Assembly: GCA_903879985.1 (NCBI GenBank)
Contig: CAIRNR010000007.1
Coordinates: 216,079 to 280,078, forward strand
DNA length: 64,000 nucleotides
From: an uncultured candidate division WWE3 bacterium
Lineage (GTDB): Bacteria > Patescibacteriota > WWE3 > UBA101185 > UBA10185
Direction: 5' to 3'
The notes beneath the pieces were generated by a model, which saw nothing but the letters and a program-made list of their open reading frames with translations, had not been told where the DNA came from and did not search any database. Position numbers and translations under genes: made by a program. Below are positions 859 through 63,334 of the stretch, piece after piece. Position 1 is the stretch's first letter, and every line of letters begins with the position of its first letter.

Positions 859-3800
859 TTATTTTTCCTCCTTAGTCGTTTCGCTTGGCGATTCGTCTAA
901 TTCACCTTGATACACTTCTTTGGCAGAATCGTCGGCTATTTCTGGTACAGCTACAGCTTCTTCTATTGCTGGTTGCTCTTCCGCTGAATATGCTTCCAAT
1001 CCTAAACCTAATCCGTTTAACTTTCTTACTAATAACTTAAATGTTTCTGGTACTGTTGATTCTGGTATTACTTTACCTTGAATCATTGCACTGTAAGCCT
1101 GTGTTCTACCTAACATATCGTCAGATTTAATGGTTAACATTTCTTTAAGTATGTGAGCTGCGCCGTAAGCTTCTAGTGCCCAAACTTCCATTTCTCCAAA
1201 TCTTTGACCACCGAATTGAGCTTTTCCTCCGAGAGGTTGCTGTGTGATCAATGAGTATGGTCCTGTAGATCTAGCGTGCATCTTTTCTTCTGACATATGA
1301 ATAAGCTTTAAGATGTAAGTATCACCTACCACGACTTCTTCGTGGAAGTAATCGCCGGTTCTACCATCGATTAACTTCATTTTTCCTGATACTGGAAGTC
1401 CTGCTTCTTTTAGTTCAACGTCAATCAATGATTCTGGAATTGCTTGTAAAGATGGAACTTCGTATGTTTTACCAAGTTTTCTTCCGGCCATTCCGAGTGA
1501 TGCTTCAAGCAATTGTCCGACGTTCATACGTGCTAAAACTGATGCTGATGAAAAGATAATATCAACAGTAGATCCATCGGCTAGCATTGGCATGTCGACT
1601 GATGGAACAATGGCTGAAATAACACCTTTGTTTCCGTGACGTCCAGCTAACTTGTCTCCTACTTCAATCTTTTTTTGTTGAGCGACGTAAACTGTAATTC
1701 TTTCAATTGTTCCTGCTGGCAATGATTCGTTGTCCTTTTTTGTAACGCGTTTAATTCCAATAACAACACCGTGCTCACCATGAGGCATGGTTAATGAAGT
1801 ATCTCTAACGTCTTTAGCTTTTTCACCGAAAATAGCTCTTAATAATCTTTCTTCTGAGGTTAAATCAACTTCACCTTTTGGAGCAACTTTTCCAACTAAG
1901 ATATCGCCTGATTTAACTTTTGATCCAACGGCAACAATTCCGTCTTCGTCTAAGTTTCTTAATGTTTCTTCTGAAACGTTTGGTATGTCTCTTGTGATTT
2001 CTTCAGGTCCTAATTTTGTTTCTTGAACTGATGTTGTGTAGTCAGAGATATGAATTGATGTTAAAACGTCGTCTTTAACTAATCTATCTGAAATGACGAT
2101 ACCATCTTCGAATTCCAAGCCACGGTAAATCATGTAAGCGACTTTCATGTTTGTTCCGATAGCCAATTCTCCGTCGTTAACAGCTGGTCCTTCAATTAAG
2201 ACATCACCTTTTTTAACTTTTTGTCCGGTTTTTACACGAACGTATTGGTTAAAACAGGTATCTGAATTTGTTTGCTGGAATTTAGCTGCACGGTATTCAA
2301 CTTTATTCTTTGGTCCGTATTTAACAACAACTTTTGTAGCGTCTGCAAAATCAATTTCACCATCTTCTTCAGCACTAATTAAAGCGTTTGTGTTTCTGGC
2401 GATATCGTTTTCAATACCTGTTCCAACTAATGGTCTTTGTGGTTTTACCAAAGGAACTGCTTGAGACATTTGTTGAGTACCCATCAAAGCACGAGCAATA
2501 TCGTTGTTTTGTAAGAAAGGAATAAGTCCTGCGGCAATACCTACGACCTGTCTTGGAACAACTTCCATGTACTCGGCAACAGAAGGATCTCCTAAGAAGA
2601 AACTTCCGGCTTTTCTAACAGGAACTAATGTATCTGAGATGTAACCATTTGCATCAATGTTTATTGATTGGTCGGTAATGTGAACGTTTTCTTCTTCGTA
2701 AGCTGCTAAATATACAACTTCGTCGGTAACTTTGATTCTTCCGTCAGCTTCTTTTTCGAGTTTAATGTAAGGAGTTTCCAAGAATCCATAATTGTTTACT
2801 TTAGCGTACATAGCTAAGTAGTTAATAAGTCCGATGTTTGGTCCTTCTGGGGTTCTAACTGGGCATACGCGTCCAAATGAAGAGTAGTGAACGTCTCGAA
2901 CTGAGAAACTTGCTCTTTCTTTGGTTAAACCACCAGGTCCTAATACTGATAATCTTCTTAAGTGATCAAGTGCGGTTAATGGATTTTGTTGATCGTGCAA
3001 TTGAGATAACTGTCCTGTTGCGAAGAAACTGTGAACAGCAGCGGCAATAGCTCTTGGTGAAATCAAAACTGATGGTTCGGGTAATATATCTCGTGGAGAC
3101 AAACTCATTCTTTCTTTAACATTCTTTTCCATTCTTAAAAAGCCAATTCTCATTTGCCATTGTAATAATTCACCCATACTCTTAACTCTTCGATTGCCCA
3201 AAAAGTCTACGTCACTTGGTGAACCAATACCGTTATTTAATTCGATTATTCTGGAAACAATCTTTAACAAATCATCCAATTGCAATAATCTATGATCTGC
3301 ATCATTTGTAATATTTAAACCTAATGTTTGGTTAAGTTTAAAACGACCTACAGAACCCATACTAAAACGTCTCTTGTTAAAGAACATGGCGTTTATTAAG
3401 GCTCTAGCGTTTTCTAAGACCAAAGGCTCGCCTGGTCTCATTTTTCTGTATATTTCTAAACAAGCTTCTTCGTAAGAAGATGCTGGATCTTTAGCTAATG
3501 TGGAATCAATGTAATTTACTTCTGGATTTGTTTCAACGCCTGTAAAGGCTTTACGTATTTCGTCGTCGGTATCAAGTCCGAATACTCTTAATATAGTTGT
3601 TGCTGTGATTTTTCGTTTACGGTCAATTCTTACACTAACGACACCATTTCTTGAGGTTTCGAATTCCAACCAGACACCACTTCTTGGCAAAACTTTAGCA
3701 CCTGCTAAAAATTGTCCTGTAACAGGAGATGGTTCTCCGGTGAATAAAACACCTTCTGATCGAATAAGCTGATTTACAATTGTTCTTTCAACACCACTAA

Positions 3801-59457: not shown

Positions 59458-61041
59458 ATGTATTGGCCAGAAACACTCTCAAAAGACATCCAAAATAAGC
59501 TTAGTGGACCTTATCATGTTGACGATATGAAAACGCCATCGGGACAGGTGCACATTGGTGCTCTTCGCGGTGTAATACTTCACGATGTTCTACATAAAGA
59601 GTTTTTAAAAGAAGGTCAAAAATCCGTTTACACATACATTTATAACGATATGGATCCTATGAAAAAGATTCCATCTGATCTTGTTGGCAAAGGTTACGAA
59701 GCCGATTTGGGTAAACCAATTTTTATGATGAAAGCTCCCGAAGGTACTAAGGATTACGCAAGATATTTTGCAGATATTTTTACCGGCGCATTTAACAAAA
59801 TGGGAGCAACACCAGAAATTTTATTTTCCTCCGAAATGTACAAGGCAGGAAAATTTAATGATGTCATTAAAGAAGCATTAGACAAAGTTGAAAACATTAG
59901 AAAAATTTACAGCGAAGTAGCCGGTTACGAAAAACCTGAAAACTGGTTTCCAGTTCAAGTTATTTGTCCAAAATGCGGCAAAGTAGGAACCACAATAGTA
60001 ACGGGTTGGAATGGAAAAGAAGTTGAATTTGAATGTCGCACAGACTTAGTAACATGGGCTCAAGGTTGTGCATACAAAGGTTCTATATCTCCGTTTGATG
60101 GTAATGCAAAACTTATGTGGAAAGTTGATTGGCCAGCTCACTGGAAAGTCCTTGGTGTTAACGTTGAAGGTGCAGGTAAAGATCACTCAAGCGCGGGTGG
60201 CTCACGAGATATGGCAACAGAACTTTGTAAACTTTTTGGAATTCAAGAACCCGCAGATATTCCTTACGAATGGTTTTTAACAAAGGAAGGCAGCAAAATG
60301 TCTACTTCCTCCGGCGTGGGAATGTACGCTAAAGATTTAGTTGAAGTATTACCTCCAGAGGTTGCCAGATTTTTGGTATTAAGAACAAACTACAACACAG
60401 CTATTCTATTTGAACCAGAGGGTGAAACTATTCCAGATTTGTACGACGAATTTGATAGATGCGCGACTAATTTTTACGCGGAAACTCCAGAAGACGCTGA
60501 CGCCGCTAAATATTTTGACGCCGCGATAATTAGGGATCAATTTAAACAGCATAACTTTTTACCACGATTCAGAACATTAAGTAGCTATATACAAATGCCT
60601 TCGATGGACATTCAAAAATGGGCAACGGACGAAAAAGGTTCGGAATTAACACAATTTGAAAAAGACATCCTAAACGAACGAATCGCTTACGCAAAAATCT
60701 GGCTAAACACATACGCTCCAGAAAAATATGTATTTATGTTCAAAACAGAAATTCCAGAAAACGCTACAAAATTAAGTGATGTCCAAAAAAACTTTTTAAA
60801 TAGTGTAACTAAATTAATTAACGAAAAATATATAAACTCCGAGCACACTGCCGACGAATTACAATTTGATATTTTTGAACTTACAAAAGTAGTGGGAATT
60901 CCTTCAAAGGAAGCCTTTAAAGCTATGTATACTTCTCTAATCGGAAAAGAACATGGCCCAAAAGCCGGATGGTTAATTAAAGATATCGGTTACGCAACTG
61001 TGAACGAAAGATTCGAAAAAATATGGAAAAACTCACTGTAG
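59458..61041 (+). CDS. lysK: Lysyl-tRNA synthetase, class I (archaeal-type LysK)
   Basis: Class I HIGH-like motif (VHIGALRG), a Zn-binding Cys cluster (CPKCGK...C...C), and KMSKS-like GSKMSTS. Confidence 0.9.
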   Translation: MYWPETLSKDIQNKLSGPYHVDDMKTPSGQVHIGALRGVILHDVLHKEFLKEGQKSVYTYIYNDMDPMKKIPSDLVGKGYEADLGKPIFMMKAPEGTKDYARYFADIFTGAFNKMGATPEILFSSEMYKAGKFNDVIKEALDKVENIRKIYSEVAGYEKPENWFPVQVICPKCGKVGTTIVTGWNGKEVEFECRTDLVTWAQGCAYKGSISPFDGNAKLMWKVDWPAHWKVLGVNVEGAGKDHSSAGGSRDMATELCKLFGIQEPADIPYEWFLTKEGSKMSTSSGVGMYAKDLVEVLPPEVARFLVLRTNYNTAILFEPEGETIPDLYDEFDRCATNFYAETPEDADAAKYFDAAIIRDQFKQHNFLPRFRTLSSYIQMPSMDIQKWATDEKGSELTQFEKDILNERIAYAKIWLNTYAPEKYVFMFKTEIPENATKLSDVQKNFLNSVTKLINEKYINSEHTADELQFDIFELTKVVGIPSKEAFKAMYTSLIGKEHGPKAGWLIKDIGYATVNERFEKIWKNSL

Positions 61042-61616
61042 AAAACGCCAATAAACTTCTAATTACTCATATGCAAAATCAAAATTTAAGAAGACACTGC
61101 TATGCGGTTGGAAAAACTTTGTCTGCATTTTACGATCTATACAAAAATCAAAACCGCGAAATAGGATCACTTTCTAAAGAACAATGGGAAACAATTGGAA
61201 TATTGCATGACGCTGATTGGGAAGAAACAAAGGATGTACCTGAGAAACACACTGTTTTAACTTTAGAATGGTTTAAAGAATATGACGTTCCTGAAGAAAT
61301 GGTTAATGTAATAAAATCTCACAACAATAAAATGACTCACCTGCGCGAACCCGAAACGTTATTAGAATGGACCTTGGAATGCGTTGACGAGCTTACAGGT
61401 TTTATCGTAGCCGTTACCTTAGTATTACCCTCAAAAAAGTTAGAAGATGTAAAACCCGAATCAGTGTTGAAAAAATTTAAACAAAAAGAGTTTGCAAAAG
61501 CTGTTGATCGATCTCAGATGGAACAATGTGAAGAGAAGATTCAGGTTGATATTAATACTTTGGTTGAAACAACGTTAAAAGCTATGCAAGAGAATCATGA
61601 GCTGTTAGGTCTTTAA
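61023..61616 (+). CDS. HD-domain phosphohydrolase
   Basis: H...HD motif (LRRHCYAVG...GILHDADW). Overlaps the lysK 3' end by 19 nt. Confidence 0.75.
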   Translation: MEKLTVENANKLLITHMQNQNLRRHCYAVGKTLSAFYDLYKNQNREIGSLSKEQWETIGILHDADWEETKDVPEKHTVLTLEWFKEYDVPEEMVNVIKSHNNKMTHLREPETLLEWTLECVDELTGFIVAVTLVLPSKKLEDVKPESVLKKFKQKEFAKAVDRSQMEQCEEKIQVDINTLVETTLKAMQENHELLGL

Positions 61617-61688
61617 TTTTTCCTTTTTACTACGTTCATAAAAAAACAATTCGGCAAGCCTCATGGTTTTTTATTCGCAGTAGCTCAT

Positions 61689-61728
61689 AAAAAACTAAGA
61701 GCGGCTTCCATATGGTCGAACCGCCCTT
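61689..61728 (-). terminator. Intrinsic terminator on the minus strand (aagggcgg/ccgctctt stem 7/8, 16-nt loop, aguuuuuua)
   Basis: The stem begins inside the stop codon of small ORF2 of the K-rich peptide locus. Confidence 0.5.
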
Positions 61729-61840
61729 AGCAACATTCAAAAGTCCAATTGTTACTCCCGAGCAGATGCGTGAGAGCAACCAAGCAACCAGAGAACAAAG
61801 TTACTTTCGAGCTAATGCGAGAAAGCAACGAAGTAATCAT
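61727..61840 (-). CDS. Candidate small ORF (37 aa, MITSLLSRISSKVTLFSGCLVALTHLLGSNNWTFECC), translationally coupled to the upstream K-rich peptide gene
   Basis: Its ATG lies 2 nt after the TAA of the K-rich gene (TAAcgATG). Its stop is embedded in the terminator stem. It is hydrophobic with 4 Cys. It could be a chance ORF. Confidence 0.25.
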   Translation of the reverse strand: MITSLLSRISSKVTLFSGCLVALTHLLGSNNWTFECC

Positions 61841-61842
61841 CG

Positions 61843-61938
61843 TTACTTTTTCTTAGCTTTTTTAGCGACTTTCTTTACTGTTTTCTTTACTACTTTTTTA
61901 GCGACTTTCTTTGCGACTTTCTTTTTCTTTACTACCAT
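61843..61938 (-). CDS. Small lysine-rich basic peptide (31 aa, MVVKKKKVAKKVAKKVVKKTVKKVAKKAKKK)
   Basis: A perfect SD AGGAGGTG lies 7 nt upstream of the ATG. A terminator lies downstream. The sequence is a periodic KK(V/A)(A/V)KK repeat. The gene was missed by the ORF track (under 60 aa). The competing plus-strand 76-aa ORF is its antisense, has low-complexity F/T-rich composition and has no RBS. Confidence 0.45.
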   Translation of the reverse strand: MVVKKKKVAKKVAKKVVKKTVKKVAKKAKKK

Positions 61939-61964
61939 CTAAATCACCTCCTAAAAAAATTTTA

Positions 61965-61993
61965 GGACTCCCCATAAAACTGAGTTAGTCCTA
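61965..61993 (-). promoter_or_regulatory. 5' leader hairpin plus U-run immediately upstream of the SD of the K-rich peptide gene (attenuator-like)
   Basis: The minus strand reads ggacuaacucaguuuuauggggagucc (6-bp stem aggact/agtcct), then uaaaauuuuuuu, then AGGAGGUG. No minus-strand gene lies upstream, since the region is divergent. Confidence 0.3.
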
Positions 61994-62095
61994 GTTTAGA
62001 ATATTCGAGCAGAAATAAAAACGTTTAATATTCATTTGTATGTTAATTACACAAATATTCTGACAATTTGTCAATAATTTTGATATTATTTATAT

Positions 62096-63334
62096 ATGAA
62101 TGAACCAAAAGTTAACAAAAATTTTATAGATGATACAAAAATTCCAATAGAAGAAAAAGAAAAAGTAATTAAACGTAAGAAAGTTTTATTCACTATAACC
62201 TCGTGGATAGTGACGTTGTGTATAGTTATTCCTCTACTTGGTTTTGGATCTTATAAATTTTATGTTTCGTACATACGCAATGTAACCATCCCAATAATAA
62301 AACAAACACCAACGCCATCTCCAACAAAAAGCGGTGCAAATTCAGAACCAATTGTTTCAAATGAATATAGCAGCGATAATTTACGAGTAAATATTACCTA
62401 TTTAAGTGATGCAAAAGTTACCGACTCACCAGAAGTTAACGGACAATCCAGAACGCTTGTTGTACTTTATACAAAAGATGACACCAGCAAAGACACGTGG
62501 ACAGAAGATAATTTAGCAAACGGATATATTTTTAAAGTAACAACTTTTGATACACAAATAAGAGATTTGGATGAAATTGTTAATGTTAAATTAGCAAGTT
62601 ATACAGCCAATTGCGCGGCGACAGCAGTGTTTAGCAAAATAACCGATACAACAGTAAATTTCGAACCAGCTAAAACTTTTACAATTCAAAACTGTAATGG
62701 TGATTATGTAATAACGTATGTTTCAAAATTTAATACCAACTACGAAATTACACGCATATTTAGAGGTGATGTAGGTTATCGCCAACTATATCAAAGTAAT
62801 GCAAACGATATTTATAACAGCTTAACTTTTTATCCTGAGGGAGGACCTGTTGGACCAACGGAAACGTACACAAATACAGACTACGGATTTGCATTCGTAC
62901 ATCCTCATCTGGATTCAGCATGCTGTAACGTTCCAGCACCAACATTAAAAAATCCGGAAAAAATAATTTCTCTCGGAAATAAATACACCTACGTAGATAA
63001 AAATAATTTTGATGGAATAGGGTTCTATGCATTTAGACTTAACGACCAATATAATTTTCAGCAATATGTTACCAATAATAGAAAAGCTTTAACCGACGAT
63101 TACATGGTAGTTCGTGGCGTTCCACCAAAAGCACAAGATACTGAAATGAAAATTGGGGGTAAAAATGCAATTTTATTGCACGGATATTCTTGGCAAGGAA
63201 ACGACTTAATATTTGTGGATGTGGAAAAAGATTTCGGAAAATCATATGCGTTAATAATTTCAATAAAAAATACTTCTGGAGATGCCTTCCAAAAAACTAT
63301 AGATGATCTGTTGAAGTCATTTAAGTTTAATTAA
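62096..63334 (+). CDS. Hypothetical membrane-anchored extracytoplasmic protein (412 aa)
   Basis: One N-terminal TM, then a Thr/Asn-rich domain with 4 Cys (CAAT...CNG...ACC). No known family. Confidence 0.5.
   Translation: MNEPKVNKNFIDDTKIPIEEKEKVIKRKKVLFTITSWIVTLCIVIPLLGFGSYKFYVSYIRNVTIPIIKQTPTPSPTKSGANSEPIVSNEYSSDNLRVNITYLSDAKVTDSPEVNGQSRTLVVLYTKDDTSKDTWTEDNLANGYIFKVTTFDTQIRDLDEIVNVKLASYTANCAATAVFSKITDTTVNFEPAKTFTIQNCNGDYVITYVSKFNTNYEITRIFRGDVGYRQLYQSNANDIYNSLTFYPEGGPVGPTETYTNTDYGFAFVHPHLDSACCNVPAPTLKNPEKIISLGNKYTYVDKNNFDGIGFYAFRLNDQYNFQQYVTNNRKALTDDYMVVRGVPPKAQDTEMKIGGKNAILLHGYSWQGNDLIFVDVEKDFGKSYALIISIKNTSGDAFQKTIDDLLKSFKFN

Follow-up and report, generated by a model that had tools for sequence, protein, structure and literature searches.

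A stand-alone poly-lysine mini-gene of a candidate division WWE3 bacterium: a probable polycation product and a candidate attenuator leader

What does a bacterium of candidate division WWE3 encode in a short intergenic stretch in which a lysine-rich open reading frame (ORF) lies on one strand and a longer, phenylalanine- and threonine-rich ORF on the other? The question is raised by a locus in a 64,000-nucleotide stretch of DNA, hereafter the window, from an uncultured member of this division (GenBank assembly GCA_903879985.1, contig CAIRNR010000007.1, positions 216,079 to 280,078), for which an earlier note, made from the letters of the sequence, had proposed a small poly-lysine gene with regulatory signals of its own. 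The gene in question, here called K-ORF, is the minus-strand ORF at 61843-61938 (61843..61938), and its 31-residue product is MVVKKKKVAKKVAKKVVKKTVKKVAKKAKKK. K-ORF is a stand-alone, monocistronic gene of this candidate division WWE3 (Katanobacteria, Patescibacteria) bacterium, and the reading that we favour, with somewhat better than even confidence, is that it supplies an abundant H1/protamine-like polycation for DNA or RNA whose expression is gated by a leader attenuator.

The lysine-rich frame and its counterparts in relatives

The peptide encoded by K-ORF contains 17 lysines among its 31 residues and no acidic residue (D or E), the lysines being spaced by V, A or T. Its computed net charge is about +16.5 at pH 7, for which the +19 given by the earlier note was too high, with an isoelectric point of 11.2 and a mass of 3.5 kDa (3506.6 Da, or 3375.4 Da once Met1 is removed). 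The peptide shows a KKxx period and, with it, the lysine-rich short tandem repeats without acidic residues that characterize Hc2/H1-like sequences. The start codon is preceded by a Shine-Dalgarno (SD) sequence, AGGAGGTGA (61952..61944, minus strand), which is invariant among WWE3 relatives; it had been recognized before, but the distance to the ATG is 5 nt (6 nt if counted from AGGAGGTG) and not 7 nt.

Relatives were collected by a search with the protein of the neighbouring HDIG-domain gene, keeping one genome per species, which yielded 22 loci, most of them, with 58-67% identity, carrying the label of candidate division WWE3, Patescibacteria or Saccharibacteria (L-numbers are the locus labels of the related contigs compared). 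In L007, L010, L018, L019, L021 and L024, a composition screen identified K/R-rich ORFs of 24-34 amino acids (aa) that match K-ORF in strand and in their position behind the HDIG gene, and the metagenome contigs L072 and L097 also carry a K/R-rich ORF in this slot. The window and these eight relatives thus form nine syntenic WWE3 loci in which a unit of promoter boxes, leader, SD, K-ORF, 3' untranslated region (3'UTR) and terminator follows greA-lysS-HDIG. The N-terminus M[PV]VKKK of the relatives' peptides is conserved (consensus MPVKKKAKKVAKKVVKKAKKTVKRKAKK..KK), and in L024, the relative with the highest GC content, many lysines are replaced by arginine.

Substitution patterns single out the same frame. 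Over L018, L019, L024 and L072, codon differences amount to 24 synonymous and 22 non-synonymous in the K frame, 15 and 27 in the plus-strand 76-aa frame, and 1/45, 14/36, 8/42 and 6/36 in the remaining four frames. Furthermore, AAG makes up 7 of the 17 lysine codons of K-ORF (41%, vs 22% in 24 long genes of the window), and its longest A-run measures 6 against 10.6 expected under the lysine codon usage of the genome (P(<=6) = 0.0075); fewer long A-runs and more AAG are what selection against slippage in an expressed poly-lysine gene would be expected to leave. Taken together, the K/R exchange, the synonymous excess in the K frame and the avoidance of A-runs argue for a translated K/R-rich frame. 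This bears out the earlier choice of the minus-strand frame as the real one, and the pattern that would speak against that choice, conservation of the plus-strand 76-aa ORF and not of the K-rich frame, is not what the relatives show, since they keep the K/R-rich frame. K-ORF is, in our judgement, very probably a real protein-coding gene.

Annotation has registered this gene only sporadically. Six assemblies of the same strain (L001-L006) are 100% identical over the locus and therefore carry no comparative signal; in one of them (L004) the gene caller found K-ORF, and in the other five no gene was placed between the HDIG gene and the 412-aa gene on the far side. No exact match to the 31-, 37- and 76-aa products of the locus was found in a collection of 15 billion proteins, whereas L004 holds a called gene with a translation identical to the 31-aa product; very short products may be excluded from the index of that collection.

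In the window, the plus-strand genes for greA, a class I lysyl-tRNA synthetase (LysRS) and the HDIG-domain protein converge on K-ORF, and the gene for a 412-aa, membrane-anchored protein without a Pfam or NCBIfam family match diverges on the other side. The HDIG protein is encoded on a 715-kb contig as well as in several same-strain metagenome assemblies, in which the locus is 100% identical. A separate observation concerns the synthetase, the class of which is swapped within the greA-lysS-HDIG slot: the window carries class I at 59458-61041 (+) (PF01921, 288 bits), L007:2490-3992 and L018:2469-3980 carry class II (PF00152 plus an OB anticodon-binding domain), and L024:2468-3982 and L072:1786-3300 have a gene of like length with the same N-terminus in the lysS slot.

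Promoter, leader and 3' untranslated region

Upstream of K-ORF, a -35 box TTGACA (62069..62074, minus strand) lies within the palindrome TTGACAAATTGTCAG, and a -10-like box TGTAAT (62046..62051, minus strand) follows 17 nt after it. Every syntenic or leader-sharing locus has TTGACA or TTGACT in the corresponding position, a conservation that points to a promoter, of which TGTAAT, common to all syntenic loci at a 17-nt spacing, is the putative -10 element; TATGTAATTAAA is identical in L010, L018, L019, L021, L024 and L072. The upstream regions of about 53 long ORFs in the window (e.g., 62096, 27219, 58691, 20640 and 30708) mostly have no SD, and in many window genes the last base of a TAnAAT or TGnTAnAAT box is found 6-9 nt upstream of the ATG, which suggests that leaderless mRNAs are apparently the rule in this WWE3 genome. 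Against this background the SD and the long 5'UTR of K-ORF stand out, the full 9-nt AGGAGGTGA being present at no other long ORF start listed in the window. The divergent 412-aa gene itself seems to be leaderless, its ATG at 62096 coming 6 nt after the boxes CTGACA-N18-TATTAT, the latter with a TG upstream, and its -35 box and that of K-ORF overlap in the palindrome TTGACAAATTGTCAG (62074-62060).

The K-ORF leader is about 100 nt long. Comparison of leaders delimits a conserved block, TTATTTCTGCTCGAATATT in the window and TTATTTCTGYCCAATA in relatives, at 62000..62018 (minus strand), the relatives' block reading aatgaat.gaaataaatTTATTTCTGYCCAATA; it has no further copy in the window and therefore gives no sign of a regulon. 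Closer to the gene, at 61963..61993 (minus strand), the leader folds into a hairpin, UAGGACU..(CUCA/UGGG)..AGUCCUA, with 7 bp plus 4 bp over an internal loop (-13.5 kcal/mol, z = -2.6), followed by AAA and then by a terminator-like U7 tract (61953..61959, minus strand) that abuts the SD directly. The window accordingly has a stable hairpin and a U-tract between promoter and start codon, the arrangement of a 5' leader attenuator. The hairpin had been described before as one of 6 bp, and of this description its presence stands and its size does not.

Equivalent hairpins, with other stem sequences and a U-run, occur in 10 loci (L007, L097, L018, L019, L021, L024, L072, L041, L070 and L139), and in these 10, where the fold recovered the hairpin, the stem ends 21-30 nt before the AUG. 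At least five distinct stem sequences are represented with pairing kept: UAGGACU/AGUCCUA in the window, GACACUUCAC/GUGGGGUGUC in L007 and L097, UUGGCACACA/UGUGUGCUAA in L018, AGAACACACU/AGUGUGUUCU in L019, L021 and L072, and AAAGACUCU/GGGUCUUU in L070 and L139. Because the stems vary while their pairing is kept across loci, the leader hairpin is to be regarded as a conserved, lineage-wide feature and not as a local accident. The terminator-like 5' hairpin of the earlier note has in this way gained a comparative basis, each of the at least five stem sequences being followed by a U-run and an SD. A looser form of the leader, in which a hairpin is combined with CTGCCCATATTT or CTTGCCTATTTATTT, precedes K-rich ORFs in the metagenome contigs L041, L043, L047, L067 and L089. 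RNAalifold, applied to a MAFFT alignment of the leaders, worked on misaligned hairpins and returned a weak, G-U-rich pairing of block and SD (-2.7 kcal/mol), which is not relied on here.

Another element of the leader is a candidate leaderless regulatory upstream ORF (uORF), MNIKRFYFCSNILN followed by a stop codon, at 61991..62035 (minus strand). Ten nucleotides separate the -10 box from its AUG at 62035, and the UAG that ends it (61993-61991) provides the first three bases of the 5' arm of the leader hairpin. Comparable uORFs of 10-27 codons are present in 11 of the 16 leaders scanned and, by eye, also in L007, L097 and L067, with none in L010. They end shortly before, in, or just after the leader hairpin. 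Their peptides are unrelated, and the frame in which they run over the conserved nucleotide block, as read by eye, differs between lineages; it would therefore be the act of translation that matters, not the product.

At its other end, the K-ORF transcript has the terminator of its own that had been predicted: CUAAGGGCGGUU...AAGCCGCUCUUAG, a 12-bp stem plus U6 at 61689..61730 (minus strand), with terminators at the same place and with compensatory pairs in all relatives. The 3'UTR as far as the terminator stem (148 nt, 61695-61842) has a folding energy of -50.8 kcal/mol (z = -3.8). The fold contains a hairpin HP1 (GUUGCUUUC-N12-GAAAGUAAC, 61800..61829, minus strand) and a paralogous copy of it with compensatory stem changes, HP2 (GUUGCUCUC-N12-GGGAGUAAC, 61751..61780, minus strand), and their common form GUUGCUYUC-N12-GRRAGUAAC has only these 2 copies in the window, with 0 expected by chance. 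HP2 contains UCUGCUCG, a stretch for which alignment gives AACTGCCCTCAATTAAC, a block conserved in the 3'UTRs of the relatives, as the counterpart. Additionally, a similar short motif recurs in the 5' leader and the 3'UTR of the K-ORF transcript in L018, L019, L021, L024 and L072 (TTCTGCCCAATAA and AACTGCCCTCAATTAAC), and the window carries UCUGCUCG (TCTGCTCG) both in the leader block at 62000-62018 and in the 3'UTR at 61751-61780.

Two further ORFs of this region are judged non-genes. A 37-aa ORF (61727..61840, minus strand) overlies HP1, HP2 and the terminator; as previously described, its ATG follows the TAA of K-ORF after 2 nt (CG) and its stop codon (61729-61727) is embedded in the terminator stem. 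It has no SD, no Pfam or NCBIfam match and no counterpart in any of the eight syntenic relatives (L007, L010, L018, L019, L021, L024, L072 and L097), the 3'UTRs of which differ by indels and hold no ATG. From this lack of counterparts, the indels and the strong folding, we conclude that the 37-aa ORF is a by-product of a structured 3'UTR and not the coupled second gene for which it had been taken. The antisense 76-aa, F/T-rich ORF (61712..61942, plus strand), also reported before, is present, and it starts at a CATATG in the terminator loop and matches no Pfam or NCBIfam family. It is the compositional mirror of the K-rich frame. That it is uninterrupted in relatives as well we attribute to composition, since no stop codon can arise in the complement of AAR, GCN and GTN codons. 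As a real gene this ORF was rejected, given its ATG in the terminator loop and its 15/27 substitution pattern vs 24/22 in the K frame. Rfam gave no gathering-score match in the window and, over 61550-62150, only chance-level matches at E 0.5-10.

Function of the peptide and the weighing of alternatives

By analogy with known lysine-rich proteins, the K-ORF peptide is, on balance, probably a polycation that binds nucleic acid or another polyanion. The basis of this analogy is that, across a set of proteins comprising Hc2 (PMC2848022), AlgP (PMC9239181), mycobacterial Ku (PMC3553676), MDP1 (PMC13639343) and PhaF (PMC12818456), lysine-rich repeats are responsible for the binding and condensation of DNA, RNA or polyphosphate granules. 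An A/K-rich tail is also present on parcubacterial uS19 (PMC9297842). The K-ORF peptide would act purely by charge, as a counter-ion resembling a histone H1 tail or a protamine, coating and condensing a cellular polyanion, most likely DNA or else rRNA/ribosomes or polyphosphate. Among the functions offered by the earlier note, an H1/Hc-like or ribosome-associated polycation is the best fit. A perfect 9-nt SD in a genome where most genes have none suggests, moreover, that the peptide is made in quantity.

The leader offers a possible route by which this production could be controlled. Some 20-30 nt short of the AUG, a transcript from the promoter would run into the terminator-like hairpin with its U-run, and, as proposed here, K-ORF would therefore be carried by read-through transcripts only. 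A ribosome finishing the uORF would mask the 5' arm of the hairpin, block its formation and thereby permit read-through, in the manner of a pyrBI-style translation-coupled attenuator. The 3'UTR hairpins and the terminator would stabilize the short mRNA, with the 37-aa and antisense 76-aa ORFs arising as by-products. A broader generalization, that ultra-small Patescibacteria use stand-alone, protamine-sized poly-lysine peptides, overlooked by standard tools, as a major counter-ion and compaction agent of DNA or rRNA and tie their synthesis to translational capacity through a new uORF-hairpin leader, is speculative, and we hold it to be possible but doubtful.

To gauge how widespread such genes are, metagenome contigs were scanned with the pattern GGTGA-N3-9-ATG-[SY]-AGTAAARAARAR, i.e., a start M[APV]VKK[KR] behind GGTGA, which imposes the start motif and leaves the remainder free to be K-rich or not. 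About half of the 120 pattern matches fall in the class of interest, comprising 61 non-redundant ORFs of 15-148 aa with at least 40% K+R, such as MAVKKKAAKKKTAKKK, MPVKKKARKAAKKVVKKAKKTVKRKAKKATKRK and the repeat-expanded MAVKKKAAAKKKRPAAKKKRPAAKKK... of 72-148 aa. Most of these K-rich mini-ORFs lie behind strong promoter-like boxes, and a terminator follows within 200 nt in 32 of 51, the corresponding figure for control genes sharing the start motif being 7 of 27, as counted with a simple scanner that misses bulged stems, the window's own included. Their contexts are heterogeneous, and in L148 the K-ORF follows rpsT-serS (neighbours checked against Pfam). Viral contigs returned 11 matches to the same pattern, 0 of them wholly K-rich repeat peptides, and a mobile or viral origin of K-ORF was rejected on that count.

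Searches of curated families place the peptide outside the known groups. Neither the 31-aa peptide nor its 34-aa orthologue in L018 matches Pfam or NCBIfam even at E <= 1-10. Longer metagenomic relatives (59-69 aa) align to PF07382 (Hc2) at E 2e-4 to 4e-4 and 21-22 bits, short of the cut-off of 40, and to NF038052 at 17-20 bits (cut-off 135), NF038053 being sub-threshold as well. As no curated cut-off is reached, the K-ORF peptide is not a member of the Hc2/H1-like families, and plausibly works like them. Stand-alone poly-lysine mini-proteins, or this leader, in Patescibacteria have no entry in Pfam, NCBIfam, Rfam or PDB, and none was found in the literature searched; the same literature yielded no ribosome structure from the Candidate Phyla Radiation (CPR) and no WWE3 ribosome proteomics.

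Several variants seen among the metagenome contigs deserve mention in their own right. In other low-GC lineages, seen in L047 at about 2050-2170 (+) and also in L089 and L043, K-ORF is followed by another small ORF, the product of which combines a Cys motif with a K-rich tail (e.g., MCKTCGCGQPLMKKTKKTATKKATVTRKTTAKKKTAKRK and MCKTCKAHNPGKSSSMKKKTTTKKTKKK, read by eye). A separate subfamily of 16-32 aa, MAVKKKAAKKKTAKKK-like, is found in L063, L073, L076, L081, L082, L088, L110, L118, L135 and others. Its members share a terminator, AGGCTGGAGRAGAAAYTCTCCAGCCT, that is nearly the same in each and lies some 30 nt past the stop codon, and a conserved TTGACA/TTTACA promoter region. At the K-ORF locus of L110 (7090-7413, -), a 107-aa protein has an H1-like K-rich N-terminus MVKKKTTKKAVAKKTTKK... 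and then a segment resembling, by eye, a SWIB/MDM2 domain; in L084, a 412-aa protein starting MVVKKKKFGKKAAKKVVKKK, also with an H1-like K-rich N-terminus, lies in or beside the K-ORF locus.

A number of observations weigh against an abundant polycation under attenuator control. Transcription, translation and abundance of K-ORF are all deduced from DNA sequence. At least four related loci (L008, L009, L011 and L022) have no K-ORF at the HDIG junction, a membrane-protein gene standing directly next to it, so K-ORF is not universal at this site; it behaves as a self-contained cassette. As regards the leader, the hairpin is missing from L010, no U-run accompanies it in L043, L047 and L089, and AAA intervenes between stem and U-run in the window; no alternative antiterminator structure was found for the attenuator, and a consensus promoter scan did not list the TGTAAT -10 box (G at position 2). 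Searches for homologues gave 0 matches for the single peptide among 1.84 billion protein representatives, a low-complexity query of 31 aa having no search power; a profile of 14 peptide sequences produced 8000 word candidates of which 0 scored, and against all PDB chains it gave 0 at E <= 10, power being low for low-complexity sequence. Since these searches are without power, homology beyond the syntenic WWE3 clade rests on composition, on an N-terminal motif forced by the scan pattern, and on the shared leader.

Several alternatives must be weighed against a charge-driven polycation. The size, the charge and the stand-alone, highly expressed gene design of K-ORF are typical of small ribosomal proteins, and the peptide might be a new ribosomal or ribosome-associated protein like bS22, bL37, bTHX or eL41, filling rRNA grooves of the reduced WWE3 ribosome and autoregulated through a leader of ribosomal-protein type. 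The conserved leader with its terminator-like hairpin does resemble ribosomal-protein leaders, and the same idea is favoured by the rpsT-serS context in L148, by a K-ORF in L107 near a gene read as bL25 from its N-terminus, and by the absence of uL30, bL9 and 23S helix 78 from WWE3 together with the A/K-rich tails of CPR ribosomal proteins (PMC9297842). However, no ribosomal-protein model in Pfam or NCBIfam and no PDB chain, solved ribosomes included, matches the peptide, a length range of 16-148 aa with repeat expansion is unlike ribosomal proteins held in a fixed rRNA pocket, and the WWE3 gene lies outside ribosomal-protein operons and is absent at the site in close relatives, all of which makes a ribosomal role unlikely, though it is the foremost of the rivals. 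The 17 lysine codons in 31 also constitute the codon run of a lysine-sensing leader peptide, in which ribosome speed would set the folding of GUAAC/GUUGC elements, termination at 61689-61730 and read-through antisense into HDIG-lysS. K-ORF is near lysS in all syntenic loci, be it class I or class II, and the stretch from its stop codon to the terminator shows, by inspection, six or seven alternations of the complementary segments GUAAC and GUUGC. Yet in the minimum-free-energy fold the last GUUGC has only its final C in common with the terminator stem, and on inspection none of the alternative pairings of these segments reaches more than 1 bp into that stem, so that an antiterminator is lacking; the array is specific to the window and not found in the relatives' 3'UTRs. 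Moreover, no same-strand gene lies downstream, the next gene being the convergent HDIG gene at 61023-61616 (+), relatives without K-ORF keep greA-lysS-HDIG, the composition and N-terminus of the peptide are conserved like those of a product, and related mini-ORFs occur in unrelated contexts. With two of three defining features failing, the overlapping antiterminator and the downstream gene, lysine sensing was rejected, and we consider it very improbable.

The earlier note had further suggested a secreted or membrane-active peptide and a toxin/partner pair. An exported, membrane-active or contact-dependent cationic peptide would agree with the high charge, the V/A periodicity of 4, a hydrophobic moment that peaks at 0.85 at 90 degrees (18-residue window) and the life of Patescibacteria as episymbionts needing host-cell contact, and a pair with the 37-aa ORF would agree with the 2-nt distance between the two. 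Mean hydrophobicity, however, is -0.44, whereas magainin and melittin reach +0.1 to +0.2, the hydrophobic moment amounts to 0.32 at 100 degrees, the peptide when read by eye shows neither a signal nor a leader sequence, the two flanking genes (HDIG and the membrane-anchored protein) have no transport- or immunity-related Pfam or NCBIfam match, and the 37-aa partner, devoid of an SD, is conserved in no relative; both suggestions have accordingly lost their footing and retain only a slight chance of being right. A cationic antimicrobial peptide or bacteriocin was set aside because amphipathicity combined with hydrophobicity, and export or immunity functions in the two flanking genes, were not found, and a toxin/partner pair, type I toxin-antitoxin systems included, because the K-ORF peptide has no hydrophobic segment and the 37-aa ORF is absent from the 8 syntenic relatives, where indels and hairpins occupy the 3'UTR. 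Finally, nothing at the locus might be translated, the region being either a non-coding RNA or a spacer that is A-rich and of low complexity, or else the gene might be the 76-aa ORF of the plus strand. The transcript is indeed strongly structured (z -3.5 over 431 nt), callers skip K-ORF in five of the six identical assemblies, and the products of the small ORFs are missing from the 15-billion-protein collection. On the other side, ATG, SD at optimal spacing and stop codon are conserved along with the K/R exchange, the synonymous bias and the A-run avoidance, no Rfam family matches even at E <= 10, and the 76-aa ORF is open for compositional reasons, starts in the terminator loop and has the poorer substitution pattern, which leaves these possibilities hardly credible.

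Significance and relation to known systems

Lysine-rich nucleoid proteins are a known kind; what is new here is a poly-lysine mini-protein that stands alone, and the regulatory leader attached to it may be new as well. If the peptide is made, it is an abundant and systematically missed addition to the very small CPR proteome, with a bearing on the packing and charge neutralization of a 0.7-Mb genome and of ribosomes within a minimal cell volume. Reasons for its being overlooked are readily named: such genes are near the length limits of gene callers, the opposite strand invariably presents what seems to be a longer ORF, profile searches filter out sequences of such low complexity, and tryptic digestion would leave only very short fragments of peptides so rich in lysine. 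Since wholly K-rich mini-genes are common in metagenomes, making up about half of the genes with the start motif, the oversight is general. Equally, the K-ORF leader, with uORF, conserved block, hairpin and SD, is a candidate regulatory device, none having been found described for this lineage in the literature searched.

Among known systems, the closest in composition are the H1-like proteins, for which the set compared comprised Chlamydia Hc1/Hc2 (hctA/hctB), Pseudomonas AlgP, the Burkholderia H1-like protein, the K-rich tails of mycobacterial Ku, MDP1/HupB and Streptomyces HupS. Short K/A/V/T/P repeats (KKxx, KKKxA) and the lack of acidic residues are common to these proteins and the K-ORF peptide, for which electrostatic condensation of polyanions may be expected by analogy, and the longer metagenomic relatives weakly match Hc2/H1-like models. 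Repeat number varies in hctB as it does in the K-ORF family, but Hc2 measures 165-237 aa (PMC2848022) and the K-ORF peptides of the WWE3 clade only 24-35 aa. Unlike the H1-like set, moreover, the K-ORF peptide lacks any folded or anchoring domain and exists by itself instead of forming the tail of some other protein, and its gene possesses a conserved leader of its own with a terminator-like hairpin and a uORF.

In size the peptide is closer to protamines. Salmon protamine has about 32 aa, two-thirds of them Arg, and eukaryotic protamines and the E. coli tpr ORF share with the K-ORF peptide their size, their charge density, the lack of a hydrophobic core and a proposed neutralization of DNA charge in a very small compartment. 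The tpr product is mentioned as a "protamine-like protein" of E. coli (PMC3141248). The K-ORF peptide differs from protamines in being Lys-based and not Arg-based, and the comparison is meant as an analogy that implies no homology. Small basic ribosomal proteins form a further point of reference: bS22, bL37, bTHX and eL41 are basic, a few tens of residues long, and encoded by stand-alone genes often missed by gene callers. A small basic peptide from a stand-alone gene is likewise what K-ORF offers, whereas there is no sequence or profile match, the K-ORF family varies in length and repeats, and its WWE3 members have no ribosomal operon context.

For the leader, the closest relations are the attenuators of pyrBI and ampC and those of trp and his. 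In the pyrBI and ampC logic, a terminating ribosome covers the 5' arm of the hairpin and prevents its formation. The order of parts is the same in all of them and in the K-ORF leader, namely promoter, short ORF ending at or in a hairpin, U-run and structural gene. The K-ORF leader differs from them in that no antiterminator was found and in that its uORF is without a regulatory codon run, apparently leaderless, and contains within it the conserved block TTATTTCTGYCCAATA.

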